DNA from: Bacteroidia bacterium | Lineage (GTDB): Bacteria; Bacteroidota; Bacteroidia; NS11-12g; UBA9320 | Direction of reading: 5' to 3' | NCBI GenBank assembly: GCA_965216465.1 | Contig: CBDCFW010000006.1 | Location: forward strand, 928,001-992,000 | Length of the DNA stretch: 64,000 bases | Part shown: positions 31,733 through 49,066 of the stretch, piece after piece | Layout of the letters: each line of letters opens with the position of its first letter | How positions within the stretch are numbered: the stretch's first letter is position 1 | Notes under the pieces: generated by a model | Told to the model about the DNA's origin: nothing | Database searches by the model: none | Seen by the model: only the letters and a program-made list of their open reading frames with translations | Position numbers and translations under genes: made by a program

Positions 31733-32109
31733 TACCTAAAGTAGCAATAGTGGATGATGACAGCATTTTTCAATTTACAACTAAAGTGAAAATTGAGAAG
31801 TTGCAATTGGCCGAAGCTGTAATCATATTTAACGACGGCGAAGAGGTTTTCGAATTCCTTCGCGACGAGCCTGAGTCTCAATTACCAAATATAATTTTGT
31901 TGGATATTAACATGCCTTTGGTTGATGGCTGGGATTTCTTAGAACTCTACACCAAAATTCCTGAAGATAAGCGCAATCGCATGAAGATTTTCATGTTGAG
32001 TTCTTCAATTAACCCTGTTGACGTTGAGAAGGCAGGAGAGAATCCATTTGTGGAAGACTACATAACGAAACCCATTACAGACGAAAATCTAACAAGAATA
32101 CTCTCATAA
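31729..32109 (+). CDS. Single-domain response regulator
   Basis: VDDD, LLDINMP, KP. Confidence 0.9.
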   Translation: MIPKVAIVDDDSIFQFTTKVKIEKLQLAEAVIIFNDGEEVFEFLRDEPESQLPNIILLDINMPLVDGWDFLELYTKIPEDKRNRMKIFMLSSSINPVDVEKAGENPFVEDYITKPITDENLTRILS

Positions 32110-32140
32110 AAAAAAGGCCCCGAGTAGGGACCTTTTTGGG
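32107..32140. terminator. Bidirectional intrinsic terminator
   Basis: AAAAAGGCCCC-GAGTA-GGGACCTTTTT between convergent genes. Confidence 0.65.
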
Positions 32141-32911: not shown

Positions 32912-33056
32912 AATATAATCTCCTTTCTATTTCATTGATAGTAAGTCAATTAACGAGCCGAAAACAAAGCTGTTAAGTTAAAATCGTTGATAATCAACGA
33001 TTTGCACAATTGGCTAGCTGTAAAAACCTGCTTAAAAGTGTATACGAAAATCTACA

Positions 33057-33072
33057 ATTACTCTACAGTAAC
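33057..33072 (-). other. Left att junction: displaced original glmS 3' end (GTT ACT GTA GAG TAA = V-T-V-E-stop)
   Basis: Shares the GTAAC core (33068-72) with 47136-40 and 45221-25. Confidence 0.85.
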
Positions 33073-33430
33073 GGATCACTCTCCAAAGATACCAACCTCC
33101 GAAGACCTATCGAACGGTAAGGGTTACTACCTCACGATGGTATTACAAGTATCCTCTCCCAACCTCTGGACTTCACCGTACAGTGACTACCAGTCAAAGT
33201 TGTTTGAGATCATTAAGACCAAACATGAGGACGAGGGATTGAACTTCGTTCAGATAAGTGATTGGTTGAACGAGAACCACTATAAAACTCCTCGGGGTAA
33301 GGTGTTCAAAGAGAACCATGTCTGGAGTATATACACCAAGAAGATGAGGAGTATCCAACGGTTCTCAAGGGAGAACAATACGGAGGTTCTATCGACTGGT
33401 GTTGATGTAGTCAACTACGTTCCTGATTAA
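33068..33430 (+). CDS. Detached C-terminal segment of the integrase (recombinase-domain-like), in frame across attP in the circular form
   Basis: GLNFVQISDWLNENHYKTPRGKVF resembles the recombinase DNA-binding domain; possible internal ATG at 33137. Confidence 0.6.
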   Translation, partial: VTDHSPKIPTSEDLSNGKGYYLTMVLQVSSPNLWTSPYSDYQSKLFEIIKTKHEDEGLNFVQISDWLNENHYKTPRGKVFKENHVWSIYTKKMRSIQRFSRENNTEVLSTGVDVVNYVPD

Positions 33431-33554
33431 CCCAACTGATAGGTCTTAGTCTGTTTTAAAAAACTGACGACATATATAGGGGGTTGGGGTTTGTGTTTCC
33501 TTTTACTGTTGTGATTAGTGGTATATATTGAGTAAACTATGGTTATATGTACCT

Positions 33555-34185
33555 CTATATTAGTTCTTTATGTAAGGATTTATATGTCTTCTTTACCTTA
33601 CTTATAGTAGTTTGAGATACTCCTAGTATCCTACTGATATCTTTGTAACTATACCTCTTATCTAGGTATTTAAGGATATCCTTTGACTTCTTACGTTCTA
33701 AGTATTGTTCTGGAGTATATGATGTTCCAACCCTTCGTCCTATGTATACCTCCGGATTGGTCATTTTTTTTTAATCTGATCCCCTCCAATTGTCTTTGAC
33801 GTATGGACTCCCTTTCAAAACTGTACATCACCGACAGGATGGACAATAATAGTTCACTGAACTTGTCTGGATTTCCTTCACTATCAAAGTTCCTGATGTT
33901 GGGATTACGACAGACCACCGTCACGTTGTTTTCAGTGAACAGTTTCCAGTTTGATAGTACATCGATGGTATTCCTCCCAAGACGATCAATTGAGTGAACC
34001 TCAAGGTGGGTTAGTTTACCCTCATCCATGAGTTTCTTTATCTCCTTCCCTTTCCCTCTTTCAAAGAGTGGAACGGAACCAGATATTACATCACAGAACA
34101 CGTAATCGAACCCTTTAAGGTTCTGTAACTGTCTTTTGTGGGTCTGACCTTCATCGGTACTGATACGGGAATAAAACACCTTCAT
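33555..34185 (-). pseudogene. Small serine resolvase/invertase, frameshifted copy (A9 tract)
   Basis: Identical to 44109..44738 except one extra A at ~33764-33772. Confidence 0.75.
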
Positions 34186-34194
34186 ATTCACTTC

Positions 34195-34460
34195 ATTTTA
34201 TGGGGTAACGCTAATGTACCCTATTAATGGGGTATACGCACTAGTATTGGGGGTGTTTTTAGTACTCGTACGGGTACACCGTAAACTTGGAGTCGAATGG
34301 GTTACGCCAACCAAATATTGACCGGATGATCCTGGACTAGAGACTCCAGAATCCGTGATTTTACTGGGTGGTTATGTTCCGCCAACCAAATTGTCCCCCA
34401 GGGATCTCGTCCCGGGAGGGGTGGGAGGTGTATCCCCTATTATATAGGTGGGAAAGTAGG
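34195..34460. promoter_or_regulatory. Candidate res/ori region (palindromes and direct repeats)
   Basis: GGGTA-n9-TACCC (34203-21); GTACTCGTACGGGTAC (34262-77); CGCCAACCAAAT twice (34305, 34380). Confidence 0.45.
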
Positions 34461-34515
34461 ATATTAGAGAGTAGACCCTACCTTGAAAAAAATATTTCCC
34501 AATTTTTTCTGGAAA

Positions 34516-34989
34516 TTAGGGTCGGTTGTCAAGATAAAACTGATTGTATGTGTGTAGGAGACCTATTAGAGGGGAGGAGAAGTCAATCTGGTGGGATTTG
34601 TCGAATCCTAGTTCATTTCGGAGGAACTCTTCAAGGATGACTTTATCTTTTTGTTGTAGGTGGAAAACTGAACCTCCGTAATCAATTACATACCTGTCAG
34701 GAATTAAACTATTTTTAAATAATTTTAGTCCGTTATTCGAAGAGGTAACCCTCCTAAATTGTTCAATATTATATCGAAAATCCTCCGTATCCCCTTCTAT
34801 TTCTACGTTTTCATTAAAATTGATCGGATTCTCATCATTTTGAACCGTACGACAATTTTTACCCAAAAAACTTGTAACGGTGAGTCTTATAAAATCGGTC
34901 ATATTCAACCCTGTTTTTTGGAGGTAATTTTGGATTTGGACAAAGGTGTCTTCGTCCACCCTTATTCTAATTTGTTTCGTAAACTTCAT
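34516..34989 (-). CDS. Ribbon-helix-helix (CopG/MobC-like) protein
   Basis: MKFTKQIRIRVDEDT..QKTGLNMTDFIR; divergent from the polymerase-like gene. Confidence 0.55.
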   Translation of the reverse strand: MKFTKQIRIRVDEDTFVQIQNYLQKTGLNMTDFIRLTVTSFLGKNCRTVQNDENPINFNENVEIEGDTEDFRYNIEQFRRVTSSNNGLKLFKNSLIPDRYVIDYGGSVFHLQQKDKVILEEFLRNELGFDKSHQIDFSSPLIGLLHTYNQFYLDNRP

Positions 34990-35057
34990 ATGATATAAGT
35001 ATCTACTTGTATCACAAAAGACAATATCCCACCTATTTATATTAAAATTGAACAGTG

Positions 35058-36665
35058 ATGTTCGGACTAATTCCCTCACATATCGACACAGAAAGGTTGG
35101 TCCAAATTGAAGGATTGAGTAATACCCAAAAGAACAGGTTAAAAGAGGGTATGGACTACTTCCTATCACGAATTACGAAGGGGAACCACTCACTTCATAA
35201 TAACAAGGGTTACGAGATAATAAATGACAAGACCCTCTCAGGAATCATAGGAAAAGAAGAACGATTTTCACGATCCTCTCGTATAAAAAAGATATTATTA
35301 GATGAAGGTATCATTGAAACTAAGAATCACCGTTCAGGTCACTATTCCACTGGTTACAGGTTAACCGAAAAACATAATACAGGTATCCTGAAAAGGGTTG
35401 AGTACAGTAAACGAATAGAGAACAAAATCACCAAACTATTAAAAGAAGGTAGAAGAGAAGAGTTTGAAGAATTTGAAGTGGAGGACCGAAACGTAAACCA
35501 TCAGTATTTATATGATCAATTTGAAAAACATACCATAACTACAAGGACTGAGGTTGGTGAATTCATAAGGGAATTGGGAGTTGAGTTATTACCGAAATTT
35601 CAAAGGAAAAAGAAATTAAAAACAGAGAACTTGAAGTCTCTTTTTAATCATCTCGGTTATTTACTCTCAATGGTTGGATCAATAAATAACGGAGAATTTA
35701 ATCCGAGTACTTCACTATCTAATAATAGACTCAATTCATTATTAACCCGTTTCCCGAAAACACTCAGACCATTTTTACTGATCAATAATGATTCAATCGG
35801 GGAAGTTGATCTGGGAACTTCACAACCATTCATATTATCAACCATATTAGGGGAGGATTTTTTAACGGACAATCAACTGGGTTCTTACAACCTATCAACC
35901 ATATATCCGAAACTTAAAATTCAGATAGACAATGTAGGTGGTATGTCTCCATCCAATAAACCCGGAAATAATAATAAGGTACTATGTGTTTTTCTGGACG
36001 ATGAGAACTACGAGTCACTTTTATCCTTTTCAAATTTTGATTTTCAGGAAGACTTTTATGGACACATCGTATCAGAAGGTAGAATTCGAAATCCTGTCAA
36101 GTTTGGTAAAATTACTAGAGGAGATGTAAAGGGTAAAATAATGATACTCCTTTTTCACAATAATGAGTACCATAGGGAAGATGACCTTATAATACAATTG
36201 GTCAAATCTGTTTACAGTGGGTTGATTGAGTTTATTGAGAGGTTTATCCAAATTTTTGGAGGTAGTGAATTCTCCATACTACTTCAAAGAGTTGAGTCAT
36301 TTCTCGTTCTAGATTCTGTGAGTAGACAGATATTCAGAACTAACAACGACATTCCCATATTTACTATTCACGACTCTGTGATGACTACACGAAAATTTAT
36401 AGAACCCGTCAAGACAATTTTTGAAGATACCATTCAAGAAATAACTCAAAAAAATCCCAACGTCAAGATGACCGATTATACAGAAATTCCGCGAGTAACT
36501 AGTGAATTGGTAGAAGAAATAGAGTCCATAACAACAATTTCTTCTGAGAATATATACGAGAAGAAACGACGATGGATATTCTCCTCAAACATTAAAAAAG
36601 GGATTGACTTATTATTTCCAAAAGAGGATCGAACCGAATGGTATACTCTACTTGGGATTGAATAA
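35058..36665 (+). CDS. Family-A DNA polymerase / T7-type RNA polymerase-fold protein
   Basis: Motif-A-like EVDLGTSQP, DFYG, motif-B-like RGDVKGKIMILLF, LQRVES, motif-C-like TIHDS. Confidence 0.6.
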   Translation: MFGLIPSHIDTERLVQIEGLSNTQKNRLKEGMDYFLSRITKGNHSLHNNKGYEIINDKTLSGIIGKEERFSRSSRIKKILLDEGIIETKNHRSGHYSTGYRLTEKHNTGILKRVEYSKRIENKITKLLKEGRREEFEEFEVEDRNVNHQYLYDQFEKHTITTRTEVGEFIRELGVELLPKFQRKKKLKTENLKSLFNHLGYLLSMVGSINNGEFNPSTSLSNNRLNSLLTRFPKTLRPFLLINNDSIGEVDLGTSQPFILSTILGEDFLTDNQLGSYNLSTIYPKLKIQIDNVGGMSPSNKPGNNNKVLCVFLDDENYESLLSFSNFDFQEDFYGHIVSEGRIRNPVKFGKITRGDVKGKIMILLFHNNEYHREDDLIIQLVKSVYSGLIEFIERFIQIFGGSEFSILLQRVESFLVLDSVSRQIFRTNNDIPIFTIHDSVMTTRKFIEPVKTIFEDTIQEITQKNPNVKMTDYTEIPRVTSELVEEIESITTISSENIYEKKRRWIFSSNIKKGIDLLFPKEDRTEWYTLLGIE

Positions 36666-36711
36666 GATTAACCCGCGTATTCGTAAGACTTTTTCATTAA
36701 CCTGAGAGGTT

Positions 36712-39669
36712 TCATTTATTTCCAATCTGTTTAACTACTTCCTTATACATAAAATCAACCAACATAGGGAACACCGTTTTTTTCATGACATTTCGGTAGA
36801 AATCCATTCTATCTCCATGATAATCCACCACTGTATCTTTGAATAGATTGTTGAAGTATTCCTTCTTTACATCCTCAGTGTTATTCCCATTGATGACCTT
36901 CATCAACTCATCGTTGGTATTCATTCGTTCTTGAATCTGTTCTAAGGTTACTCTGTCTTCTTCTCCTAAATTCTCACCAAACACCTGGTTGATCTTATCA
37001 ATGATATCCGATAGGAGAACTTTTTCGTCTTCACCTCTACCACCACCTGATTCACCTGAGATACCATAAACTTCACCTTGTTCTTCAACCAACGTAAGGT
37101 TTGTTTCTCCCATCATTTGAATACGGAGTGAATCTAAATCAACGGAATCTACAACCGATACTCTCTCAGACTCTCTCTTCGGTAGTTTCTTATTTAAGAA
37201 CCTCAGAAATACATATGATTTCTCCCATTTAACTTCTCCAAAAGATGAAATCTGAGAGATGTAAGAATACATTCTAATGAAAGATTGAATCTTGGATTTG
37301 AAATCATCCTGTTCATCCTCATTCAACCGTTCATTGTAGGTGTCTACTACAACATCAATGATGGGATGTAATCGTTCATCGGATTCTGAATTGGAGTAGA
37401 ACTCCTTACAGAATTCATCAATTTGATATTGGGTATAGAGACCGAATTGTTCGATTTCAAACAACATCTGGTACAACTTGTCGGGATCAGTTTCCTCGGT
37501 TAATATGGTTGAGGTATAATAAGGTTGAAACGATTCAATGATATCATCAGTTTCGTTTACAAAATCAAGAATAAAGGTATCCGTCTTTCCGGTCTTTGTT
37601 CGGTTCAACCTTGACAGGGTTTGAACACACTGGACGCCACTCAACTTCTTATCGATGTACATTGATTGTAGAAGTGGTTCATCAAACCCTGTTTGGAATT
37701 TATTGGACACAATGAGAATACGAAATCTCGGGTCTTTCAATCCATTAGGTATGGATGTGTTCACCAACCCATTTTCGGTATTTAATGAGGTTTCGGTGTT
37801 CTCCCTTCCATTGTGGGATATTGTTCCACTAAACCCAACTAAACAACTATAGGGTAGATTTCTATCCTTCATTTGTTTTACCATCTCTTCGTGGAAGAGT
37901 ACACAGTGTTTACGAGAACGAACTACCACCATCCCTCTACCTCTTCCGTTGATTTTTTTAGAGGTATTCCTAATGAAATGATCTAAGATGATGGATACCT
38001 TTTGACGAATGGTTTCGGAATGAGAGTCAACGTAGTTCACCAACTCTCTCTTCACCTTACTCTCAGGTACTTCTACATCTTCTTCAGAACTCTGAAGAAC
38101 CTTAAAGTATCGTTTGTAGGTGGTGTAATTCTGAAGAACATCTAAGGTAAACCCTTCGTGAATGGATTGTTTCATCGTGTAGTAATGGAAGGGTACGAAA
38201 TGACCGTCCTCATTCTTTCTACCAAAGAGTTCTAAGGTTTTGTTCTTCGGTGTCCCAGTGAACCCAAAGAACGAAATATGGTTTTGTTTACCACGAGATT
38301 CTATTTCTTTACGAATCAAATCTTCGTAATCTACTTCTTCCTCGTCTTCGTTTACAGAGAGTGATTTTTTTAAGTGTTTAGATGTTTCTCCCGTTTGTGA
38401 GGAGTGAACCTCATCAATCACTACTCCGAATGTATGTCCCTTCAGTTCTGAGATAACCTCAGAAACAAATGGGAACTTCTGAATGGTCGTAATGATGATA
38501 TCCTTTCCTTTCTCTAAGTACTCTCTCAATTGTTTAGAACCCAACTCAACTGGGTTCACAACCCCATCAGTTTGTTCTAATTTGGATACGGTGTTTTGAA
38601 GTTGTTTATCCAACACTTTTCTATCCGTAACCACCAAAATGGTGTCAAACATTCGTTTGGTATCCCCATCTTTTTGGTACAGAGAAGTGAGTGTATGTGA
38701 CAACCAACCTATCTCAAAACTTTTACCAGAACCAGTGGTATGTTGAATGAGGTAATTGTGACCAACTCCTTCTTCCTTAACCGTACTTCTGAGTTTACGG
38801 ATTACATCCAATTGGTGGTATCGAGGGAAGATCTGAACATCAAACTTTTTGGTAACTACCTTACCCTTCTTCGGATCCCATTCTCTATCTGATTCTTCAG
38901 AAATCAATACAAAGTTCTCGATGATATCCAATAAGGAATCAGGAGTTAAAATATCATTCCATAGGTACTCTGTACGGTAATCTCCTTCTACAATTGGGTT
39001 GGTAATTCCCTTGTTGTACGGAAGAAACTTTGTACCTAGTCCTCTGAGTTGAGTACTCATACTCACCTTATCGTTATCTACACAGAAGTGAACCAAACAC
39101 CGTTTGAACTTCAGTAGTGGTTCTTTCGGGTCTCTGTCCTTTTTGTATTGATTTTGTGAATGAAATATGTTTTGTCCAGTTAGTTGGTTCTTCAATTCCA
39201 TTGTAATTATGGGGATCCCGTTCAGGAAGATCACCATATCTATGGAGTTGTTGTTTCGTTTGGAGTAATGGAGTTGTCGAACAACTACAAAACGATTCTG
39301 AGAATAGAGTTGTTGGTGTTCTTCATTCAAAGAAGATTTGGGTTTGAAGTACACCAAATGGAAGTTACATCCTCTTGTTTCAATACCACCTCTCAGAGTA
39401 TCTATGATACCTCTTTGAGAAATGGTTCTATCAATGGTTTTTAGAATGTGGGAATCGGTAGAAGAATCAAACTGAGTGAAGAGTTTATCGTATTCCTCTT
39501 GTTGGGTGGATTTGATGAACTCTATTACATCTTCCTCAACCAAACAGAGTTCTTTATCATACTTAGATTCAAATTCATTAGAATGAGTAAATGAATGGTG
39601 ATACCCATTCTTGAGAAGTGATTTCTCAATCCATTCTTCAAATCGTAGTTCTGTGAATTTCTTACTCAT
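36712..39669 (-). CDS. hsdR: Type I restriction endonuclease subunit R
   Basis: D..ELK nuclease motif; HTTGSGKS; IDEVHSSQ; FTGTP; TGFD; QTLSRLNR. Confidence 0.92.
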   Translation of the reverse strand: MSKKFTELRFEEWIEKSLLKNGYHHSFTHSNEFESKYDKELCLVEEDVIEFIKSTQQEEYDKLFTQFDSSTDSHILKTIDRTISQRGIIDTLRGGIETRGCNFHLVYFKPKSSLNEEHQQLYSQNRFVVVRQLHYSKRNNNSIDMVIFLNGIPIITMELKNQLTGQNIFHSQNQYKKDRDPKEPLLKFKRCLVHFCVDNDKVSMSTQLRGLGTKFLPYNKGITNPIVEGDYRTEYLWNDILTPDSLLDIIENFVLISEESDREWDPKKGKVVTKKFDVQIFPRYHQLDVIRKLRSTVKEEGVGHNYLIQHTTGSGKSFEIGWLSHTLTSLYQKDGDTKRMFDTILVVTDRKVLDKQLQNTVSKLEQTDGVVNPVELGSKQLREYLEKGKDIIITTIQKFPFVSEVISELKGHTFGVVIDEVHSSQTGETSKHLKKSLSVNEDEEEVDYEDLIRKEIESRGKQNHISFFGFTGTPKNKTLELFGRKNEDGHFVPFHYYTMKQSIHEGFTLDVLQNYTTYKRYFKVLQSSEEDVEVPESKVKRELVNYVDSHSETIRQKVSIILDHFIRNTSKKINGRGRGMVVVRSRKHCVLFHEEMVKQMKDRNLPYSCLVGFSGTISHNGRENTETSLNTENGLVNTSIPNGLKDPRFRILIVSNKFQTGFDEPLLQSMYIDKKLSGVQCVQTLSRLNRTKTGKTDTFILDFVNETDDIIESFQPYYTSTILTEETDPDKLYQMLFEIEQFGLYTQYQIDEFCKEFYSNSESDERLHPIIDVVVDTYNERLNEDEQDDFKSKIQSFIRMYSYISQISSFGEVKWEKSYVFLRFLNKKLPKRESERVSVVDSVDLDSLRIQMMGETNLTLVEEQGEVYGISGESGGGRGEDEKVLLSDIIDKINQVFGENLGEEDRVTLEQIQERMNTNDELMKVINGNNTEDVKKEYFNNLFKDTVVDYHGDRMDFYRNVMKKTVFPMLVDFMYKEVVKQIGNK

Positions 39670-40927
39670 CCGTAGTTACTTTTAGTTTACCTGTTACCAC
39701 CTCTGAGATAAGAGATTGACGATACTCTTTAAGGAGTTCCATCCTCTTTTCTTCAATGGATATGGTGTTATCTATTAATTGAGTTTGATCATCCAAATAA
39801 TCAACAATTTGTTGTTGTTCATTTAAACTCGGAAATGGGAGATACATACTTAAAAACTCAATTGACGGTAACCTCCATCTTCCAAGAGTAGAAACTCCTC
39901 GACCTAGTCCATAGAAGATTTTCCGGGTATAACATAATTGAAATATGTACAGATAATACTCGTTACAAACTCTGTCATTCGACTTTGTAAAAACTCGATA
40001 ATCAGGACTTGTAACCCCTAGTTGTTTTGACAAATCAACATATCCTGTAATTAAATCCATATGATTCATCACAAAATCATTTTCATAGACAAACTGATAT
40101 TTTGAATAGTCCATTGAGTGTTGTCCTTCGTTGTTCTCCAAATCCTTCACTTTAAGACCTCTTTGAGTTACGGAAAGAACATCATACCCTAATTCACCAC
40201 AAATTCGTTTGTTGATAGAAAAGAGTTGTTTGAGTTTTACAAAATCCCAATGATTGGGGATCCTCCCTATCCACTCCACACCACTATCCTTCATGTCTAC
40301 ATTAGGATTCAATCCTTTTGTAACTACTTCGTTGATCAGAGAGGTTTTTTTCTTTTTAAGTAGTTCAATCTTTCGTTGGGTTTTATCAATCAGTGAATCA
40401 ATGATTGAGGTTTTGGTGTCTAAAAAGGATACGATTTGTTGTTGTTCGGAGAGGGGTGGTAGAGGTAATTTAATGTTTCCGAAAACATCTTTTGTCAAGT
40501 GAGTCATTGTTGAACCGTGAGATTCATTTGAAAGTTCATCAATTACTCCTTGAATGACCCAATAATAGAATTTCCGAATCAATTTTTCATTAAGTTCAAC
40601 TTTGAATATGTGTTGATTTAGAACTCCAACATCTCTTTTCCATTCAAACAAACCAAGTGTGGTAGACCAACTAAAAAGATAATCACCTTTCTTAATGATA
40701 TATTTTGGATCTATTTCCCCATTGTAAAAATTTTCAGAACCTTTACCCTTTGTTAAGTTTTGTATTCGAATGATTAGTCTTCCTGAATCTCCCCAATCAG
40801 TTGGTTTGAATGGATATCCATTTATGTAATCACCAACATATTTCATTTTGGTACGATTCCAATGAGAGGGGATCTCACCAATCCAGTCAACTCCAGAATC
40901 TTTATATGACTCATACCTCTTCATCAT
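39662..40927 (-). CDS. hsdS: Type I specificity subunit S
   Basis: Twin KDSGV.WIG.IP.HW and P.L.EQQQIV.FLD conserved regions flanking two TRDs. Confidence 0.92.
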   Translation of the reverse strand: MMKRYESYKDSGVDWIGEIPSHWNRTKMKYVGDYINGYPFKPTDWGDSGRLIIRIQNLTKGKGSENFYNGEIDPKYIIKKGDYLFSWSTTLGLFEWKRDVGVLNQHIFKVELNEKLIRKFYYWVIQGVIDELSNESHGSTMTHLTKDVFGNIKLPLPPLSEQQQIVSFLDTKTSIIDSLIDKTQRKIELLKKKKTSLINEVVTKGLNPNVDMKDSGVEWIGRIPNHWDFVKLKQLFSINKRICGELGYDVLSVTQRGLKVKDLENNEGQHSMDYSKYQFVYENDFVMNHMDLITGYVDLSKQLGVTSPDYRVFTKSNDRVCNEYYLYIFQLCYTRKIFYGLGRGVSTLGRWRLPSIEFLSMYLPFPSLNEQQQIVDYLDDQTQLIDNTISIEEKRMELLKEYRQSLISEVVTGKLKVTTDE

Positions 40928-42633
40928 TCAACAATCTGATTTAACAGGTTTTGAGATTCTTCTTCTAACTTCAACAAGTCATTGGTGATTTCCTGTGAAG
41001 AACGAAGTGGTTTGTACTTGTAGAAATATTTGGTGAAATTGATCTCGTACCCCACTTTACTCTTGTCAAAATCAATCCAAGATTCAGGTAAATGTGGTTC
41101 AACCTCTCTACTGAAATACTCTTCGATATCTTGATCCAATGGAACCCTTTCGTAATCTCTGAGTTTAGAATCAGGTTTAGGTGATCCATCTTTTTTACAT
41201 TCAATTTTCCCATTCTCTTTGAGAGGTTGTTCTATGGTAATCTTAGTATATCCAAAGAACTCATTGGGGTAAATCTTAGAGATTTTAGATTCTTCAAACC
41301 CATTGTATGTGTTTAAGATCTGTTGAGTTTGTTCTTCATCAATGTACTTACGTTTACTACCTAAACTCTTCTTCATTATTTTATGAAGAGAAGATCCATC
41401 AATCAGTTGAACCTTACCATTTCGATTGGTTTTCTTCTTATTGGTTACTATCCAGATATATGTAGAAATACCCGTATTAAAGAATAATGAATCGGGTAGA
41501 GATACAATACACTCTAACCAATCATTCTCAATGATCCATTTTCGGATTTCTGATTCACCACTTCCAGCATCTCCAGTAAAGAGGGGAGAACTGTTGAACA
41601 CTATTCCAATACGAGAACCTTCAGGTTTCATTTTAGAAATTAGGTGTTGAAGAAACAACAAGGATCCGTCAGATGTACGCGGAGTACCCACCGAAAATCT
41701 CCCCATTGAGTTTTTAGATTCTTCTTCAACATAACTCTTCTCTGATTTCCAACTGACTCCAAAGGGTGGATTGGTAATCATATAATCAAACTTTCTTCCC
41801 TCGTGTTGATCGTTTGATAGAGATGAACCCAATTTGATACGTTCAGGGTCTTCCCCTGTAATCAAGAAATCAGATTTACAAATAGAGAAGGTCTGTGGGT
41901 TTAGTTCTTGACCGTAGAGTTGGAACATTACATCAGATGAGATATTATCATTAACCCAATCCTTACCAATGGTTAACATTCCTCCTGTACCACAACAAGG
42001 GTCGTAAATTGAACGAATGATACCTTCACCCTTCAGGTTTTCATCATCACCACTAAACACCATTGAAACGAGAAGATTCACCACATCTCTTGGAGTGTAG
42101 TGTTCTCCACTTGTTTCGTTACTCATCTCGGAGAACTTACGAAGAAGTTCCTCAAAGATGGACCCCATTGTATGGTTATCTACTTTGTTGGGGTGTAAAT
42201 CAACCTCAGTAAACTTATCTATGAGGGAGTAGAGTTTCTTATTTTTAATGAGTTTCTCAACGGGTTTATCCAATTGGAAATTTTCCAATATCTGATGAAC
42301 GTTATCAGAATACCCATTCAGGTAGTTCGGGAAATTGATCCTCAATCCATTCGGGTCAGATTTCAAACGAGTTAAATCGTAGGGAGAATAGTTGAAGAAG
42401 TTTAATCCTGTTTTCTTTTTGATGATTGGAGTTGGGTCGTCAATACCACTTTGAAGAAGTTCATTGTATTGTTTTACCACTTCATCTTTATGAGGTTCAA
42501 TCAAACAATCCAGTCGTCGAAGTACAACGAATGGAAGGATCACATCTCCGTATTCGTGAGGTTTAAATAATCCTCTTAACTCATCGTCACAAACCCTCCA
42601 TATGAAGGATGATATTTCTTGGTAATTACTCAT
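40924..42633 (-). CDS. hsdM: Type I methyltransferase subunit M
   Basis: GEHYTPRDVV, YDPCCGTGGML, NPPF. Confidence 0.93.
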   Translation of the reverse strand: MSNYQEISSFIWRVCDDELRGLFKPHEYGDVILPFVVLRRLDCLIEPHKDEVVKQYNELLQSGIDDPTPIIKKKTGLNFFNYSPYDLTRLKSDPNGLRINFPNYLNGYSDNVHQILENFQLDKPVEKLIKNKKLYSLIDKFTEVDLHPNKVDNHTMGSIFEELLRKFSEMSNETSGEHYTPRDVVNLLVSMVFSGDDENLKGEGIIRSIYDPCCGTGGMLTIGKDWVNDNISSDVMFQLYGQELNPQTFSICKSDFLITGEDPERIKLGSSLSNDQHEGRKFDYMITNPPFGVSWKSEKSYVEEESKNSMGRFSVGTPRTSDGSLLFLQHLISKMKPEGSRIGIVFNSSPLFTGDAGSGESEIRKWIIENDWLECIVSLPDSLFFNTGISTYIWIVTNKKKTNRNGKVQLIDGSSLHKIMKKSLGSKRKYIDEEQTQQILNTYNGFEESKISKIYPNEFFGYTKITIEQPLKENGKIECKKDGSPKPDSKLRDYERVPLDQDIEEYFSREVEPHLPESWIDFDKSKVGYEINFTKYFYKYKPLRSSQEITNDLLKLEEESQNLLNQIVE

Positions 42634-42639
42634 TTCAGG

Positions 42640-42849
42640 TCAATTTTCTTTCGGGTCGTCATAAATCAATTCCGAGGGTTTAACCCCTAGTATTTGAGAA
42701 ATACGATTTAATGTTTCAAGTGAAGGTTGTGATTTATTATTACACCACAGGTTTACACTTACTGGTGAAACACCTATTTTTATGGATAACCATTTCTGAC
42801 TTCGGTTTTGATTTTTCAAAACTTCTCTCAGATTATTAAGTTTTCTCAT
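42640..42849 (-). CDS. XRE-family HTH regulator (controller-like) heading hsdMSR
   Basis: NNLREVL..SQKWL..GVS..V..W..N..QPSLETL. Confidence 0.8.
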   Translation of the reverse strand: MRKLNNLREVLKNQNRSQKWLSIKIGVSPVSVNLWCNNKSQPSLETLNRISQILGVKPSELIYDDPKEN

Positions 42850-42963
42850 TACGCCCAGAATCTTGGTCAAACTTAAACTAATTCTTAAAGATTTGGTAAT
42901 AAATCCTATTTTTGATTGAGAGAATTGGGACATTATTTGACCCAATTTCAAAGGGTATACATA

Positions 42964-43722
42964 ATGGAAGACGAGTTCTTACTTGATGAACTTAAAAACT
43001 ACATCGACTATTTCGAGGGGAGACCTTATGTCCATCATTTTCTTGTAGGGAATTCTTACGAAGTCAACATCAATGGTAAGAGTGTAAACAATTGTTTGAC
43101 AAACAATCAATATCTAGGGAAGAAAGAACTTTATGAGGAGTATTACTTGAATAGAGAATACGAAGAAGTTCTTTCGATGTTGGACAAACATAAGAGGATG
43201 GATTGGTTCATCCAACATCACGAAGAGATCTATGAAAAATCAAATAATGAAGACCAATATTATCAACTCCTAAGAGAGAATCTGGTTTACGTGGACAACC
43301 ATGAACCATACAGAAAGGAATACCCAAATTTGATCCATATAGGAAGTAATCCCCAATTGATGATGTTAGAGGATGAACGACTAAAATTGGATAAACTCCC
43401 TAATGAATTTGTTGTTTACAGAGGTGTTTCCTCAAACGAAAAAATAACGAAGAGAAACGTTCAAGGTTTACTCGGGAATTCATGGAGTCTCGACAGGGAG
43501 ATATCAATTTGGTTCTCCAAAAACCATTCGTCAAGACATCTAAATTCAAAGTATTTGGTTCTACTGACCTACCAAGTTTCAAAAACTGAGGTACTCGGGT
43601 ATTTTACGGACAGGAATGAAGAAGAAATGTTTTTAGACTACACTAGGATTGATATTGACAAAGTATCATTTGAAGAAATCCCGGAGAATTACCAGTTGAA
43701 AGTTTCCTTTGATAAAGGTTAA
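42964..43722 (+). CDS. Putative R-S-E-clade ADP-ribosyltransferase-like protein
   Basis: VVYRG ... NSWSLD....WF ... RNEEEM in the C-terminal half. Confidence 0.45.
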   Translation: MEDEFLLDELKNYIDYFEGRPYVHHFLVGNSYEVNINGKSVNNCLTNNQYLGKKELYEEYYLNREYEEVLSMLDKHKRMDWFIQHHEEIYEKSNNEDQYYQLLRENLVYVDNHEPYRKEYPNLIHIGSNPQLMMLEDERLKLDKLPNEFVVYRGVSSNEKITKRNVQGLLGNSWSLDREISIWFSKNHSSRHLNSKYLVLLTYQVSKTEVLGYFTDRNEEEMFLDYTRIDIDKVSFEEIPENYQLKVSFDKG

Positions 43723-44108
43723 ATCTAATAGGTCTCCTACACACATACAATCAGTTTTATCTTGACAACCGACCCTAATTTCCAGAAAAAATTGGGAAAT
43801 ATTTTTTTCAAGGTAGGGTCTACTCTCTAATATCCTACTTTCCCACCTATATAATAGGGGATACACCTCCCACCCCTCCCGGGACGAGATCCCTGGGGGA
43901 CAATTTGGTTGGCGGAACATAACCACCCAGTAAAATCACGGATTCTGGAGTCTCTAGTCCAGGATCATCCGGTCAATATTTGGTTGGCGTAACCCATTCG
44001 ACTCCAAGTTTACGGTGTACCCGTACGAGTACTAAAAACACCCCCAATACTAGTGCGTATACCCCATTAATAGGGTACATTAGCGTTACCCCATAAAATG
44101 AAGTGAAT

Positions 44109-44738
44109 ATGAAGGTGTTTTATTCCCGTATCAGTACCGATGAAGGTCAGACCCACAAAAGACAGTTACAGAACCTTAAAGGGTTCGATTACGTGTTCTG
44201 TGATGTAATATCTGGTTCCGTTCCACTCTTTGAAAGAGGGAAAGGGAAGGAGATAAAGAAACTCATGGATGAGGGTAAACTAACCCACCTTGAGGTTCAC
44301 TCAATTGATCGTCTTGGGAGGAATACCATCGATGTACTATCAAACTGGAAACTGTTCACTGAAAACAACGTGACGGTGGTCTGTCGTAATCCCAACATCA
44401 GGAACTTTGATAGTGAAGGAAATCCAGACAAGTTCAGTGAACTATTATTGTCCATCCTGTCGGTGATGTACAGTTTTGAAAGGGAGTCCATACGTCAAAG
44501 ACAATTGGAGGGGATCAGATTAAAAAAAATGACCAATCCGGAGGTATACATAGGACGAAGGGTTGGAACATCATATACTCCAGAACAATACTTAGAACGT
44601 AAGAAGTCAAAGGATATCCTTAAATACCTAGATAAGAGGTATAGTTACAAAGATATCAGTAGGATACTAGGAGTATCTCAAACTACTATAAGTAAGGTAA
44701 AGAAGACATATAAATCCTTACATAAAGAACTAATATAG
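44109..44738 (+). CDS. Small serine resolvase/invertase with C-terminal HTH (intact copy)
   Basis: YSRIST catalytic Ser; SIDRLGRN; ERESIRQRQLEG; HTH SYKDISRILGVSQTTI. Confidence 0.88.
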   Translation: MKVFYSRISTDEGQTHKRQLQNLKGFDYVFCDVISGSVPLFERGKGKEIKKLMDEGKLTHLEVHSIDRLGRNTIDVLSNWKLFTENNVTVVCRNPNIRNFDSEGNPDKFSELLLSILSVMYSFERESIRQRQLEGIRLKKMTNPEVYIGRRVGTSYTPEQYLERKKSKDILKYLDKRYSYKDISRILGVSQTTISKVKKTYKSLHKELI

Positions 44739-44862
44739 AGGTACATATAACCATAGTTTACTCAATATATACCACTAATCACAACAGTAAAAGGAAACAC
44801 AAACCCCAACCCCCTATATATGTCGTCAGTTTTTTAAAACAGACTAAGACCTATCAGTTGGG

Positions 44863-45448
44863 TTAATCAGGAACGTAGTTGACTACATCAACACCAGTCG
44901 ATAGAACCTCCGTATTGTTCTCCCTTGAGAACCGTTGGATACTCCTCATCTTCTTGGTGTATATACTCCAGACATGGTTCTCTTTGAACACCTTACCCCG
45001 AGGAGTTTTATAGTGGTTCTCGTTCAACCAATCACTTATCTGAACGAAGTTCAATCCCTCGTCCTCATGTTTGGTCTTAATGATCTCAAACAACTTTGAC
45101 TGGTAGTCACTGTACGGTGAAGTCCAGAGGTTGGGAGAGGATACTTGTAATACCATCGTGAGGTAGTAACCCTTACCGTTCGATAGGTCTTCGGAGGTTG
45201 GTATCTTTGGAGAGTGATCCGTTACAGTGGAGTAGAGCGAACGGGTCTGAAGTTGGTCCCCCAGTGTTTTCAATGGTTTGAGGACTGTTGAGTCTGGTGC
45301 GGAATTTGAATCTCCCCAAGTGGTTTTCGTCAAAAGTGGGATTTTAAGGTTGATTTTGAGGGTGTGAAGAAGGGTTTGAGAGTCGTGGTATAGAATGACC
45401 TTATCAAGAATGGAATCTAATACTGACCTTTTAAATTCAGGTGTAAGA
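44863..45448 (-). pseudogene. 5'-less copy of the integrase 3' end, reading through attP into the extra recombinase-like domain
   Basis: LTPEFK...LYSTVTD|HSPK...VPD in one frame. Confidence 0.7.
45200..45245. other. Intact internal attP (core GTTAC 45221-25), inverted
   Basis: Both element-side arms are joined: ..GATCC-GTTAC-AGTGGAGTAG.. Confidence 0.8.
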
Positions 45449-45506
45449 TTTTTCCAAAACGGTTCCGATATACACAGAATAATCTCTACTTTTTGGGATC
45501 ATTCAA

Positions 45507-47165
45507 ATGGAAACGTTACATATATTAATTCGTGTAAGTACACAAAGTCAAGAAGAAGATGGAACCAGTCTTCGAACCCAAAAACAACTTGGAATCGACC
45601 TATCTCGTAGGTTGAAAATGAAGTATCAAGTTCATAATGAAGGGGGAACTTCCTCCAGTAAAGATACCCTCGATAACAGACCTGTGATGTTGAATCTTTT
45701 GAGATTAATGGATGAAGGGATAGTCAAACACCTATTCGTTTATAATACTGATAGACTCTCAAGGGGGTATACCTGGTATATTATACGGAAGAAAATGGTT
45801 GACAATAACGTGATACTCTATTGTTCTACAGGAAGGTTCAATACCAGTGGGTCGATGGAGACATTGATTTTGGGAATATTATCAGAAATTTCTCAATACG
45901 ATAACAAGGTCAGAACCGAAAGATCACGTCTTGGGAAGTTGGAGAAGGTTAAACTCAATTATTATAGAGGAGGACCCCCAACATTTGGATACAAAATACA
46001 GAAAGGACAAAGGGGTTCAACACTAGAAATTGATGAATTCGAAGGTCAGATCGTTAGATCAGTGTTTAAAATGTACCATAAGGGTCACTCCGTCAAGGAG
46101 ATTAAACAGGTACTTGAGAAGGACGGAGTACGTACCCGGAGGGGTAATAAACATTGGTCATTAGGGTCACTTCAATTGATGTTGAGGAACGATACTTACA
46201 TTGGAATAGAGGAGTACCATGACAAGAAAAGTGGTGTTACGATACGAAGTGAAGTCCCTCCAATCATTCCAGTTAGGTTGTTTGAAGAGGTACAACAACG
46301 AAGAGTCAGAATTCTTACCCGTAAAGGTCAATTCAATCGGACAACACATGAGTATCTGTTTAGAGATTTTATGTATTGTCAGTGTGGATCTCCCATTGGA
46401 GGACGAATTAAACCGTCGAAATCAATCAGACAATTTTTCTGTACCCTTTCTGAAAGGAAATTTAACAAGTCAAAACCTACTTCTAAAACCTGTGAGATGA
46501 AACGATGTGTGAACATCGACAAAACAGAAGAGTTACTTTGGGATACCATTTATTCTCAACTGATTAAAACATCCGAAATGAGATTGATACTGAAAAAGAC
46601 AATCAAGGAAAACCCATCATTCTCATCAAGGGTCAGAAAACAGAAAGGGAAAATAAAAGACGAACTCAACCAAAAGGAGAAAGAATTAAAAAAGATTAGT
46701 GATGGAATCATCGACATTGAAAGAAGGAGAATTCTGAATGAATTTCAATCTGAAGACCTGTATAAAGGAATCAAAAAAGAGTTGGATAAGGAATACCGAA
46801 ATTGTCACATTCAAATTGAAAACCTAAAAAACTCTCTAAGATATTATGGGGAACAAGAGAACTGGTTCAAAACATTAGAACACTTATCAACCACCCTGAA
46901 ATCTACATCAATTCTTACACCTGAATTTAAAAGGTCAGTATTAGATTCCATTCTTGATAAGGTCATTCTATACCACGACTCTCAAACCCTTCTTCACACC
47001 CTCAAAATCAACCTTAAAATCCCACTTTTGACGAAAACCACTTGGGGAGATTCAAATTCCGCACCAGACTCAACAGTCCTCAAACCATTGAAAACACTGG
47101 GGGACCAACTTCAGACCCGTTCGCTCTACTCCACTGTAACTGATTTTGCAAGATTTCTAGGTTGA
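45507..47165 (+). CDS. Large serine recombinase (integrase); last 6-7 codons are glmS antisense sequence
   Basis: RVST, DRLSR, recombinase domain, Zn ribbon YCQCG..FC..C, coiled coil. Confidence 0.92.
   Translation: METLHILIRVSTQSQEEDGTSLRTQKQLGIDLSRRLKMKYQVHNEGGTSSSKDTLDNRPVMLNLLRLMDEGIVKHLFVYNTDRLSRGYTWYIIRKKMVDNNVILYCSTGRFNTSGSMETLILGILSEISQYDNKVRTERSRLGKLEKVKLNYYRGGPPTFGYKIQKGQRGSTLEIDEFEGQIVRSVFKMYHKGHSVKEIKQVLEKDGVRTRRGNKHWSLGSLQLMLRNDTYIGIEEYHDKKSGVTIRSEVPPIIPVRLFEEVQQRRVRILTRKGQFNRTTHEYLFRDFMYCQCGSPIGGRIKPSKSIRQFFCTLSERKFNKSKPTSKTCEMKRCVNIDKTEELLWDTIYSQLIKTSEMRLILKKTIKENPSFSSRVRKQKGKIKDELNQKEKELKKISDGIIDIERRRILNEFQSEDLYKGIKKELDKEYRNCHIQIENLKNSLRYYGEQENWFKTLEHLSTTLKSTSILTPEFKRSVLDSILDKVILYHDSQTLLHTLKINLKIPLLTKTTWGDSNSAPDSTVLKPLKTLGDQLQTRSLYSTVTDFARFLG
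46913..47135 (+). repeat. 223-bp arm inverted relative to 45226-45448
   Basis: Reverse-complement match by eye. Confidence 0.9.
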
Positions 47166-48970
47166 TCTACATTACAACCACGCATAACTGCAATGTAGTA
47201 CGAAAGAAGCTGAAGAGGAATAGTAGCCAAGATCGGGGTTAGGCAATCTTCTGTATCTGGAATTTCAATAACGTGATCTGCAACTTCTCGAACCTTAACG
47301 TCTCCTTCAGTAACAATTGCTATTATTTTACCTTTTCTTGCTTTAACCTCTTGAATATTGCTTAATACTTTCTCGTAGTAATTACGCTTAGTTGCAATAA
47401 CAACTACGGGCATTTCCTCATCAATTAATGCAATTGGGCCATGTTTCATTTCAGCAGCAGGATATCCTTCCGCGTGGATGTATGATATTTCCTTAAGTTT
47501 TAAGGCACCCTCAAGAGCAACAGGGAAATTATATCCTCTACCTAAGTAAAGGCAATTTGGAGCATCCATGTAGATGGAAGCAATCTCTTTACATTTATCG
47601 TGGCAGGACTCCAGTAATTCTTGAACTTTGGTTGGAATTGTATCAAGCTCAGCGAACATCTGACGTAGCCTATCTCGCGTTATTTTACCTCTAATGTCTG
47701 CAATACCCAATGCAAGTAGTGTAAGCACGGTTACTTGAGCGGTAAATGCTTTGGTTGAAGCTACACCAATTTCAGGTCCAGCATGAGTATAAGCTCCTGC
47801 ATGAGTAATTCTAGGAATGCTTGACCCCACAACATTGCAGATTCCGTATATGGTTGCTCCTTTTTCCTTAGCCATTTCAAGTGCTGCCAAGGTATCAGCA
47901 GTTTCACCACTTTGAGAGATTGCAATTACCAAGTCGTCTTCAGTAATAATTGGATTTCTATATCTGAATTCGGAAGCGTATTCTACTTCAACCGGAATTC
48001 TGCCAAACTCTTCAATGAGATATTCGCCAACAAGCCCAGCATGCCATGATGTGCCACAAGCTACAATGATGATACGGTCGAGGTTTCGAATTTTTGGAGC
48101 AAATTCTTCCAAACTTCTCATAGCAAATGTGAGACTGTTAGGATCAAATCTACCTCTCATAGAATCATATATAGACTTTGGTTGTTCAAAGATTTCTTTA
48201 AGCATGAAATGTTCGTACCCGCCTTTTTCCAGAGCATCTAAGCTGATTTCAAGTTCTTGTATAAAAGGAGATTTTGCAACATTGTCAATAGTCTTTAGTG
48301 TCATCTCACCATCGTGAATAGCCACAATTTCGTTATCGTCTAAGTAGGTTACCTTTTTAGTGTATTCAACTATAGGAGTTGCATCGCTAGCTAAAAAGAA
48401 TTCTCCTTCACGGTCGCTGATTCCAACTACCAAAGGACTTCCTTTTCGAGCAGCAATAAGCGTGTTAGGATCATTCTTGCTTAAGATAACAATGGCATAA
48501 GCACCAACTACTTCATTGAGGGCTAAACGAACTGCTTCTAACAAGTCAACACCTTCTTGTTCTTTTATTTCTTCAATTAAATGAGTAAGAACTTCAGTGT
48601 CAGTGTCACTTACAAACTCATGACCTCTATCAAGCAGTACTTTTTTAAGCGTATCGTAGTTCTCAATTATACCATTGTGAATAAGTGCAATGTCGCCACT
48701 CTGAGATAAATGAGGATGAGCATTAATGGTGTTAGGCTCACCATGAGTAGCCCAACGCGTGTGACCTATTCCTCGAGTTCCTTCAACATTTTTACCGGTA
48801 GTATTTTCTACAAGTTCAGAAACTTTTCCTTTGTTTTTATATACTCGAAGTGCTCCATTTAAAATGGCAATACCAGCACTGTCGTATCCACGATATTCTA
48901 ATCTTTGAAGACCCTTTACCAAAAAGTCATAGGCTTGGTCTGGTCCGTAGTAAGCAACGATTCCGCACAT
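47126..48970 (-). CDS. glmS: Glucosamine-fructose-6-phosphate aminotransferase
   Basis: MCGI, LEYRGYDSAG, GHTRWATHG, PRNLAKSVTVE. Confidence 0.98.
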   Translation of the reverse strand: MCGIVAYYGPDQAYDFLVKGLQRLEYRGYDSAGIAILNGALRVYKNKGKVSELVENTTGKNVEGTRGIGHTRWATHGEPNTINAHPHLSQSGDIALIHNGIIENYDTLKKVLLDRGHEFVSDTDTEVLTHLIEEIKEQEGVDLLEAVRLALNEVVGAYAIVILSKNDPNTLIAARKGSPLVVGISDREGEFFLASDATPIVEYTKKVTYLDDNEIVAIHDGEMTLKTIDNVAKSPFIQELEISLDALEKGGYEHFMLKEIFEQPKSIYDSMRGRFDPNSLTFAMRSLEEFAPKIRNLDRIIIVACGTSWHAGLVGEYLIEEFGRIPVEVEYASEFRYRNPIITEDDLVIAISQSGETADTLAALEMAKEKGATIYGICNVVGSSIPRITHAGAYTHAGPEIGVASTKAFTAQVTVLTLLALGIADIRGKITRDRLRQMFAELDTIPTKVQELLESCHDKCKEIASIYMDAPNCLYLGRGYNFPVALEGALKLKEISYIHAEGYPAAEMKHGPIALIDEEMPVVVIATKRNYYEKVLSNIQEVKARKGKIIAIVTEGDVKVREVADHVIEIPDTEDCLTPILATIPLQLLSYYIAVMRGCNVDQPRNLAKSVTVE

Positions 48971-49066
48971 AGTTTAATAATTCTAGCAAATTTATTGATA
49001 ATAACGTGACGCTATTTCACATTATGATACAAGTGTAGTAAATAGTAGTTTATTTCGATGAACGGA

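Follow-up and report, generated by a model that had tools for sequence, protein, structure and literature searches.

A 14-kb integrative element at the glmS stop codon

We analysed a 64,000-nucleotide stretch of contig CBDCFW010000006.1 (positions 928,001 to 992,000; hereafter the window) from a Bacteroidia bacterium (assembly GCA_965216465.1). The window carries an integrative element of ~14 kb that spans positions 33059-47144, from attL to attR, is integrated at the stop codon of the host gene glmS and is almost free of the dinucleotide 5'-GC-3' (GpC). The attachment (att) cores, 18 nt each, lie at 33059-33076 (attL, plus strand, the left edge of the GpC-free tract, identified by repeat analysis) and 47127-47144 (attR). 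They are near-copies of the glmS 3' end, with agreement at 15 of 18 positions. Because their identity is confined to the stretch TACTC at the glmS stop, we place the crossover there. The target gene itself (47126-48970, minus strand) is normal in both GpC and alanine. No tRNA gene was detected in 30000-50000, and an Rfam scan over the element returned no match.

As expected of an element moved by a large serine recombinase, attL and attR share a short common core at a conserved target. The right end of the element encodes such an enzyme (45507-47165, plus strand; 552 aa as integrated), with the Resolvase (2e-13) and Recombinase (4e-17) Pfam domains that define the group. The zinc ribbon PF13408, recorded in relatives, gave no match in the window integrase. 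The cargo occupies 9.15 kb between 1.5-kb inverted repeats, both of which carry an invertase gene. It begins with a ribbon-helix-helix (RHH) regulator (34516-34989, minus strand), which has weak NikA-like and RelB-like Pfam matches (E 8e-4 and 5e-3, below the curated cut-offs) and a match to a PHROG transcriptional repressor (4e-5). A family-A-like polymerase (35055-36665, plus strand), the three hsd genes, an XRE-type helix-turn-helix (HTH) regulator (42640-42951, minus strand; Pfam HTH_3, 4e-11) and an 'ART-like' protein (42916-43722, plus strand; phrog_4776, function unknown, 9e-21) make up the rest.

The genes hsdM (40924-42633), hsdS (39662-40927) and hsdR (36712-39669) form one minus-strand operon with overlaps of 4-8 nt and encode a type I restriction-modification (R-M) system. 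HsdR combines an N-terminal nuclease region with a superfamily 2 (SF2) helicase/translocase core, all Pfam matches exceeding their cut-offs (HSDR_N 4e-14, SWI2_SNF2 5e-26, ResIII 1e-13, T1R_D3-like 1e-10). HsdM is an N6-adenine methyltransferase subunit (N6_Mtase 2e-64, HsdM_N 3e-22), and HsdS has two target-recognition domains, seen as two stretches of Methylase_S (2e-30).

GpC is missing from the DNA and alanine from the proteins

The tract 33077-47126 contains 18 GC steps where ~490 are expected, an observed/expected ratio (o/e) of 0.04 compared with 1.17 in the flanks. Only 12 of the 18 are distinct sites, because six sit in repeats. Every 1-kb interval of 33001-47000 holds 0-4 GC against 29-41 expected, and flanking intervals hold 30-59. 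The host GCs nearest to the element lie at 33030 on the left and 47148 on the right; since these bracket the att sites, the depleted tract is the inserted molecule. Across the whole host genome (3.23 Mb, six contigs), all 27 one-kb intervals with o/e < 0.35 fall in the element, as do the twelve lowest (0.00-0.07) of 3217 three-kb intervals (mean o/e 1.13, standard deviation 0.14). Just one further stretch is mildly poor in GC, at 82-92 kb of contig C5; it is a single gene with normal alanine (an ORF, or open reading frame, of 3218 aa at 82391-92047; o/e 0.62; Ala 5.0%) and appears unrelated to the element.

GpC is absent from all reading frames, from codon junctions and from the non-coding DNA of the element. 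The genes have 3 GCN codons, 2 NGC codons and 3 G|C junctions, the last compared with ~122 expected given how many codons end in G and how many begin with C. As GC is its own reverse complement, both strands are free of it. The residual sites are mostly (17/18) in CGC or GCG context; those in the unique part of the element read GCG on the sense strand, and 4 of the 12 distinct sites lie in the non-coding stretch 34192-34570. A sense-strand-specific motif (GCH), hinted at by the 17/18 count, was rejected because the pooled islands described below do not show it; in the other islands the residual GCs also lack the CGC/GCG context.

Because all four alanine codons start with GC, alanine is missing from the element's proteins. 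The translated ORFs contain no Ala in HsdR (985 aa), HsdS (421 aa), the polymerase-like protein (536 aa), the ART-like protein (268 aa), the resolvase (211 aa), the HTH regulator (103 aa) or the RHH ORF. HsdM has one in 569 aa, within GDAGSG, and the integrase two in 552 aa, one in SNSAPD and one in the FARFLG tail, which the antisense strand of host glmS encodes. For comparison, glmS uses 54 GCN codons in 615.

An earlier sequence-only reading had described an essentially alanine-free proteome with a single Ala in HsdM and one element-encoded Ala in the integrase, and the translations bear out both statements. Its view that these are functional proteins under purifying selection also holds (see below). 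What does not hold is that alanine as such is being removed: GC is equally gone from NGC codons, codon junctions, the other frames and intergenic DNA, and its absence reaches no further than the att sites. Selection therefore acts on the dinucleotide, in the DNA of the molecule that moves, and the 19-letter alphabet of the proteins is a side effect of this GpC avoidance.

A pool of GpC-free elements centred on Bacteroidota

We collected the best 120 of 8000 scored HsdR homologs (67-93% identical to the window protein). Alanine is lacking in 57, below 1% in 34, at 1-3% in 20 and at least 3% in 9. The other proteins have comparable relatives: at most four Ala occur in 76 of the best 120 integrase homologs (37-66% identical), and 9 of 10 ART-like homologs and 17 of the 150 best polymerase-like matches are Ala-free. 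From species-representative genomes we took 80 related loci, 21 of which have tracts of at least 3 kb that are nearly GC-free around hsdR. We pooled 16 of these with the window after dropping L003 (short contig), L004, L008 and L043 (o/e ~0.1-0.15) and L045 (HsdR identical to that of L018). The 17 pooled islands contain 55 GC in 188,646 bp (o/e 0.01), compared with an o/e of 1.22 in 195,965 bp of flanking DNA, and their G+C content is 31.6% versus 35.7% in the flanks.

The islands are 6-16 kb long. After extension, L027 ends at ~16.4 kb with a single GC, and L067 at ~15.5 kb with no internal GC. Depletion ends at the glmS end in the window, L063, L067 and L069 and at tRNA genes in L018, L026, L062 and L077, and most residual GC in the first island calls belonged to host edge DNA, namely the tRNA genes or glmS ends that serve as integration sites. 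Clustering of 201 island ORFs showed that only hsdM, hsdS and hsdR are common (hsdS and hsdR in all, hsdM in 17 of 19, some being cut by a contig end). The backbones vary, with serine recombinases at glmS and tyrosine integrases at tRNA genes, and neither Pfam nor PHROGs gave a match for most of the accessory ORFs. Many of 80 metagenome loci found via the integrase are also GC-free, some with cargo other than hsd. In L159, a Schlafen/AlbA_2 protein and 11 further ORFs are all Ala-free; MORN-repeat proteins occur in L091, L093 and L133, GmrSD in the partly depleted L085, and MBOAT and ParB-methylase proteins in other integrase relatives that lack hsd. We considered a conserved 'weapon' encoded by the elements and rejected it, as no gene is universal in the ORF clustering together with the integrase relatives.

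The window element thus belongs to a large pool of elements, mainly in Bacteroidota, with relatives in many aquatic bacteria. Among 17 GpC-free genome loci, 15 are labelled Bacteroidota, one SAR86 and one Cloacimonadota, the last with an HsdR identical to that of a Bacteroidota-labelled locus. The pair concerned, L018 (Bacteroidetes) and L045 (Cloacimonadota), have near-identical-looking islands, which reflects either a very recent transfer or a mis-binned short contig. A clade of 28 HsdR sequences from Pelagibacter, cyanobacteria, Arenicellales and others is partly restored in GC (o/e 0.15-0.98). An integrase search of 400 other genomes, sampled by phylum, added one match. Integrase matches in GenBank phages are at most 29% identical and HsdR matches in PLSDB plasmids at most 41%; a large GC-free phage or plasmid as the vehicle was rejected, none being present in the IMG/VR, GenBank phage and PLSDB data searched. 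Our literature searches turned up no report of GpC-free or alanine-free elements.

Alanine was lost long ago and the proteins remain under purifying selection

We compared related elements to assess whether the proteins are maintained. Relative to its nearest GpC-free relative (L002), the window hsdR has a ratio of non-synonymous to synonymous substitution rates (dN/dS) of 0.042 at dS 1.06 and hsdM one of 0.070 at dS 0.98. Other GpC-free pairs give dN/dS of 0.05-0.13 or have saturated dS, dS ranging overall from 0.67 to saturated. With dS of ~1, about one synonymous change per site has been gained without creating a GC. Together with the intact ORFs, these low ratios argue for function and against decay, as the sequence-only reading had proposed.

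We also inspected what has replaced alanine. Ala is present in at least 60% of the outgroup sequences at 55 alignment columns; there, the GpC-free HsdR proteins carry S (17.6%), G (16.9%), V (13.6%), T (7.4%), K (6.5%) and C (6.1%). The small, varied replacements that the sequence-only reading had noted are borne out at these columns, and the altered HsdR motifs HTTGSGKS (T312), DEVH (V421), FGFTGTP (G469/G472) and QCVQ (C681) fall on columns that are Ala in at least 60% of the 12 Ala-normal outgroup HsdR proteins. At many positions (T312, G321, S324, G415, V421, G469, G472, S502, C681 and V704) one residue is fixed in all 18 GpC-free HsdR lineages.

In a tree of 90 HsdR sequences, rooted on 12 viral-contig HsdR sequences (52-87 Ala; GC o/e 0.96-1.37) and built with FastTree only, with long-branch warnings and no bootstrap, the 18 GpC-free sequences fall into at least five deep subclades, interspersed with partly or fully GC-normal ones. 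Ingroup sequences have 0-46 Ala, every one below the outgroup. This pattern, with replacement residues fixed across lineages, fits a single old loss of alanine that was then maintained, followed by regain wherever the constraint lapsed.

The constraint probably acts on DNA and goes with mobility

In the pooled islands, GC o/e is 0.010 in coding DNA, 0.056 in tandem, 0.021 in convergent and 0.067 in divergent intergenic regions. The divergent spacers (20 regions, 4703 bp) contain 6 GC against 89 expected, and many regions of 250-520 bp contain none. Residual GCs within ORFs show no bias between sense and antisense (3' G in 10 of 32, 5' C in 13 of 32). Depletion outside genes and strand symmetry therefore favour a target at the DNA level over one at the RNA level.

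GC content and alanine count climb in parallel across hsdR copies, and the climb accompanies loss of a nearby recombinase. Recombinase homologs occur in 12 of 17 GpC-free hsdR loci, 1 of 8 loci with o/e 0.05-0.3, 2 of 36 with 0.3-0.7 and 2 of 16 with at least 0.7, a tally biased towards this result by recombinase queries that came from GpC-free islands. The GC-richer, recombinase-poor classes also include several Bacteroidota. In the restoring copies GC is regained faster than Ala and reappears in all NGCN contexts, with only GGCC lagging; a context preference was discarded. The avoidance covers exactly the mobile molecule, from att to att; it is old, is actively maintained while the proteins remain under purifying selection, and fades without a nearby recombinase.

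Other short palindromes are also depleted in the islands. Relative to a second-order Markov expectation, pooled islands and flanks have o/e values of 0.20 and 0.86 for GATC, 0.37 and 0.77 for CTAG, 0.38 and 0.87 for CATG, 0.56 and 0.82 for ACGT, 0.66 and 0.90 for CCGG, 0.66 and 0.79 for GTAC, and 0.68 and 0.99 for TCGA. AT-only palindromes are not depleted (o/e near 0.9). The losses differ between lineages: GATC is entirely absent where 82 are expected in L067, 69 in L002, 58 in L069 and 38 in L027, and L015 is also listed among lineages that have lost it; CTAG is absent from L018, L025 and L026 (10-17 expected, 17 of them in L025). The window element retains 47 GATC of 76 expected. These lineage-specific losses of 4-mers suggest differing restriction histories on top of a common loss of GC. 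Because a lineage-wise purge of palindromes is the classical footprint of restriction, we read the universal GC loss as avoidance of the same kind. In line with restriction-site avoidance, the motif is depleted in mobile and not in host DNA. No restriction or modification enzyme known from the hosts has the avoided word as its recognition site, and the present host genome has no GC-specific candidate.

What removes GC

That selection at the DNA level, tied to mobility, keeps GC out of these elements is very probable. As an overall explanation we tentatively favour an extreme, restriction-type avoidance of GC tied to mobility, to which we give somewhat less than an even chance; its narrower component, a restriction-type agent acting at entry or establishment, we hold with slightly more reserve still. 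Under this explanation, pressure of the kind that stripped GATC, CTAG, CATG and other short palindromes would also remove GC. The element would meet a sequence-reading, DNA-targeting activity on entering or establishing itself in a new cell; this activity would recognise the GC step as such or a mark that the step bears, and a single new GC would lower the success of transfer, so that lineages carrying one would be lost. Such a reader could be a defence nuclease, an activity of a helper phage or toxin, or a GpC mark combined with a mark-dependent nuclease. Whether an undescribed activity that reads bare GC polices horizontal transfer in Bacteroidota and their neighbours, and has thereby yielded a cross-phylum GpC-free pool of 19-amino-acid enzymes (motor ATPases, methyltransferases, recombinases and polymerases), we regard as evenly balanced.

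Several observations weigh against restriction-type avoidance of GC. We know of no bacterial nuclease that reads only GC, and the host genome contains no candidate GpC methylase: it has no PF01555 (N4/N6) match over the cut-off, and its methylases are one M.HhaI-like orphan C5 enzyme and two N6_Mtase genes, one of them the element's own. No other region of the host genome avoids GC in 1-kb or 3-kb intervals. All four Bacteroidota phages examined have GpC o/e of 0.88-1.71: Flavobacterium phage 11b (whole genome) 1.47 and, over the first 15 kb of each, Bacteroides phage B40-8 1.11, Cellulophaga phage phi38:1 0.88 and Croceibacter phage P2559S 1.71. With GC-normal phages, a GC-normal host genome and no methylase candidate, a phylum-wide barrier to incoming DNA is therefore unlikely, and the agent seems to be tied specifically to the life cycle of these elements. 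A few GC persist in every element (in att arms, hairpins and repeats), so that a single site does not kill. Depletion is ~6 times weaker in non-coding than in coding DNA, contrary to what a purely DNA-level agent predicts. Non-palindromic contexts such as AGCA and GGCA are as empty as AGCT and GGCC, and GATC, the commonest target, is less purged than GC, so the avoidance is not the sum of ordinary 4-6-bp restriction systems. The limits given above on the HsdR tree and on the recombinase tally count here as well. The host's orphan C5 methylase (C6:422407-423333; L081) has full-length similarity to M.HhaI (E 8e-103) and no adjoining restriction gene. As a separate observation, the element contains no GCGC.

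Among the other explanations, one in which the element survives as a lifeboat or satellite accounts for GC avoidance being limited to this element class, to the exclusion of host DNA, phages and other islands, and for the depleted tract being the excised molecule. A helper phage, a competitor or an interbacterial toxin would destroy ordinary DNA at GC with a nuclease or a GC-preferring double-stranded DNA deaminase, the helper being shielded by base modification, and the GC-free hitch-hiker would survive intact to be expressed, replicated and packaged. The element's size, integrases, family-A-like polymerase and defence cargo fit marine virion-encapsidated integrative mobile elements as described in PMC9618062, and a few GC-depleted relatives of 8-16 kb are filed as viral in IMG/VR (L169-L173). 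Against this, no capsid, terminase or packaging gene was found in 36 accessory ORFs searched with Pfam or 20 searched with PHROGs (partly overlapping sets), no large GC-free or GC-poor phage occurs among 79 viral-contig loci, none of 16 contigs tested is circular or concatemeric, and the agent would have to hold the same 2-nt specificity over four Bacteroidota classes. We consider it unlikely. Clearly less probable is that transcripts must survive a GC-cutting endoribonuclease (an MqsR relative or an abortive-infection RNase), so that the element's mRNAs outlast those of host and phage; a GC-free sense strand would then make both DNA strands GC-free, GC being self-complementary. This would account for stricter depletion in coding than in intergenic DNA, for half of the window's residual GCs lying in one non-coding repeat upstream of the resolvases, and for the GCG orientation of those in its unique part. 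The near-empty divergent spacers, part of each of which should be untranscribed, speak against it, as do the absence of strand bias in the pooled residual contexts, a depletion boundary at att sites and not at transcript ends, and the co-depletion of motifs that are DNA palindromes.

A mutational origin, in which a GC-context cytosine deaminase or another mutator erodes GC every time the element is transferred (for instance while its DNA is single-stranded) and selection keeps the functional survivors, would reach zero GC without a lethal agent. It is compatible with the slightly lower G+C content of the islands and with the presence of V and T, the one-step C-to-T products of GCN on either strand, among the replacements. 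V and T together, however, make up only 21% at ancestral Ala columns, where S and G dominate, also at positions fixed in the ancestor. Further, GT/AC, GA/TC and GG/CC are raised similarly, leaving no transition signature, palindromes without GC context are purged too, and the ORFs carry no hypermutation debris. We judge this improbable, to much the same degree as an RNA-level cause and marginally more so. That alanine itself is disfavoured, or that it is inserted at other codons by recoding, would explain why all element proteins lack it. It is highly improbable, as GC is equally absent where it does not encode Ala and in non-coding DNA, the Ala columns are filled by many residues and codons, the element has no tRNA gene, and host glmS uses GCN normally. 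An artefact of assembly or base calling can practically be dismissed: the property recurs in isolate and single-cell genomes and in metagenome bins and contigs from many projects, the ORFs are intact, and contigs from public sequencing runs of two studies agree with the element. Contigs from three runs (X1-X3) of one sample, probably the source, are identical to the element where they cover it, and a contig of run X4, from the second study, carries a 92%-identical relative. None of the public runs listed as containing the element is an RNA run.

Comparison with known avoidance systems

Restriction-type avoidance of GC shares several properties with the restriction-site avoidance of phages and broad-host-range plasmids: the motifs are rare in mobile DNA only, the genes are functional and the pattern varies with lineage. 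For GATC, CTAG, CATG, ACGT and CCGG, the elements match this behaviour. Known cases concern 4-8-bp sites, whereas here a 2-bp step is gone in all 16 flanking contexts, at an o/e of 0.01 and at the cost of one amino acid; we know of no cognate enzyme for avoidance of bare GC. Depletions driven by dinucleotide readers also involve a 2-nt word, and GC-specific DNA enzymes exist in nature. CpG depletion in vertebrate viruses evades ZAP, and chloroviruses encode the GpC methyltransferase M.CviPI and the RGCY cutter R.CviJI; to our knowledge, GpC enzymes are known from algal viruses and not from bacteria. Those depletions, however, are partial (o/e ~0.2-0.7) and leave coding capacity intact, and the present host has no candidate enzyme. 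In toxin resistance, too, whole genes lack a very short word and thereby escape a sequence-specific nuclease: ACA-less mRNAs resist MazF, and GCU-less mRNAs resist MqsR, a GCU-specific toxin. Those cases are single genes and concern RNA only, whereas here whole elements, including divergent promoter regions, are affected and the border is a recombination site.

The element also resembles marine virion-encapsidated integrative mobile elements, phage satellites and tycheposons in its small size, integration, recombinases, replication genes, R-M cargo and hosts. The main text of PMC9618062 describes such encapsidated elements, with tyrosine or serine recombinases, replication genes and R-M or abortive-infection cargo, in Flavobacteria, Pelagibacter and Prochlorococcus; it mentions no dinucleotide avoidance ('dinucleotide' appears only in NADH). 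In the ORFs tested here, no packaging gene was found. The operon of the present element has the three subunits, domains and gene order of type I R-M systems and, like them, exchanges hsdS recognition regions between close relatives; it differs in having other residues where HsdR helicase motifs usually have Ala and in riding in GpC-free mobile elements.

The elements amount to a natural experiment in reduced amino-acid alphabets, in which an SF2 translocase, an N6-methyltransferase, serine recombinases and a family-A-like polymerase have long done without alanine, also in motifs where it is usual. Near-zero tolerance of a 2-nt word points to a reader of GC that acts on mobile DNA and that would be a new kind of barrier to, or vehicle for, horizontal gene transfer. 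Through the pool, type I R-M systems reach several phyla (Bacteroidota, Pelagibacter, cyanobacteria, SAR86 and others), and the gradient from GpC-free to GC-normal copies offers a built-in clock for when a mobile defence system became resident. GpC-free gene sets or backbones could serve as hard-to-restrict vectors for Bacteroidota, and 'no alanine' is a simple filter for mining such elements from metagenomes.

Recombinases, inverted repeats and accessory proteins

The att core lies inside the integrase gene (…LYSTVTD|…), so that integration splits the gene and the 552-aa ORF ends in host sequence. The detached 3' part (33077-33430, plus strand; the P' arm) would lie behind the integrase ORF once the element is circular, and P0401, an inverted copy of its sequence, matches the C-terminus of the 667-aa integrase homolog P0130. 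Just upstream of the integrase, an inverted spare 3' end (44863-45451, minus strand) carries a copy of the last 79 codons and the true 117-aa C-terminus; it contains an intact attP-like core (45217-45234), and its frame stays open through the repeat into that C-terminus. The spare end is 52% identical to the P0130 C-terminus over 199 aa. It is bounded by 235-nt inverted repeats (45217-45451 and 46910-47144, the latter ending in the attR core). Inversion of 45452-46909 would, by the reading of these repeats, restore a full-length integrase of ~658 aa; full-length homologs exist at 650-690 aa. The arrangement of an inverted C-terminus followed by the integrase recurs in L094, L097, L104, L109 and L122.

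The arms of the 1.5-kb inverted repeat (33059-34570 and 43724-45234, identified by repeat analysis) are 100% complementary save for one extra base near 33765-33771. Each encodes a small serine recombinase of the resolvase/invertase type. The right copy (44103-44738, plus strand; 211 aa) is intact, with a Pfam Resolvase match (6e-19) and an HTH. The left copy (33555-34191, minus strand) is frameshifted in the assembly into two overlapping ORFs by one extra homopolymer base at 33764-33771; a contig of run X2 lacks this base, which may be an assembly error or real heterogeneity. The non-coding inner repeat end (34192-34570, mirrored at 43724-44102) has repeated ..ACGCCAACCAAAT.. motifs, four residual GCs and no Rfam family, and is a candidate set of binding sites for the recombinase or a regulator. 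A 7918-nt contig of run X1 joins 40276→33766 to 44530→45936, placing the cargo segment in the opposite orientation relative to the integrase side; either the segment does invert or the assembler took this route through the repeat. A two-invertase layout is likewise seen in L104.

The AlphaFold model of the polymerase-like protein (pLDDT 92.7) matches in Foldseek only family-A DNA polymerases or T7-like single-subunit RNA polymerases among the PDB matches listed (best E 3e-4, TM 0.37). Across 60 homologs, D252, R355, K359, H439 and D440 vary hardly or not at all, and we take them as candidate residues of polymerase motifs A, B and C. Sequence searches of Pfam, PHROGs and PDB, the last also with a profile, gave no match. 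The label 'polymerase-like' given from sequence alone is thus supported as a resemblance of fold, and family-A membership is not. For the 268-aa protein, 'ART-like' is a lead only: its R / S-W-S / E-x-E pattern is kept across 12 aligned sequences, and no structure matches its model (pLDDT 90.1) significantly (best E 0.5), nor did a PDB profile search give a useful match. A protein atlas search returned nothing beyond hypothetical Bacteroidota clusters.

In the 92%-identical relative from run X4, hsdS positions 39825-40245 are swapped for 437 unrelated letters. This is an exchange of a target-recognition domain, which would probably confer a different specificity. Seven loci also have an Ala-free family of 306-377 aa, with no Pfam or PHROG match, in or beside the hsd operon: in the hsdM-hsdS gap in L018, L025, L026, L027 and L045, after hsdR in L002 and before hsdS in L003. 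We take this position to resemble that of the anticodon nuclease gene prrC in type Ic loci.

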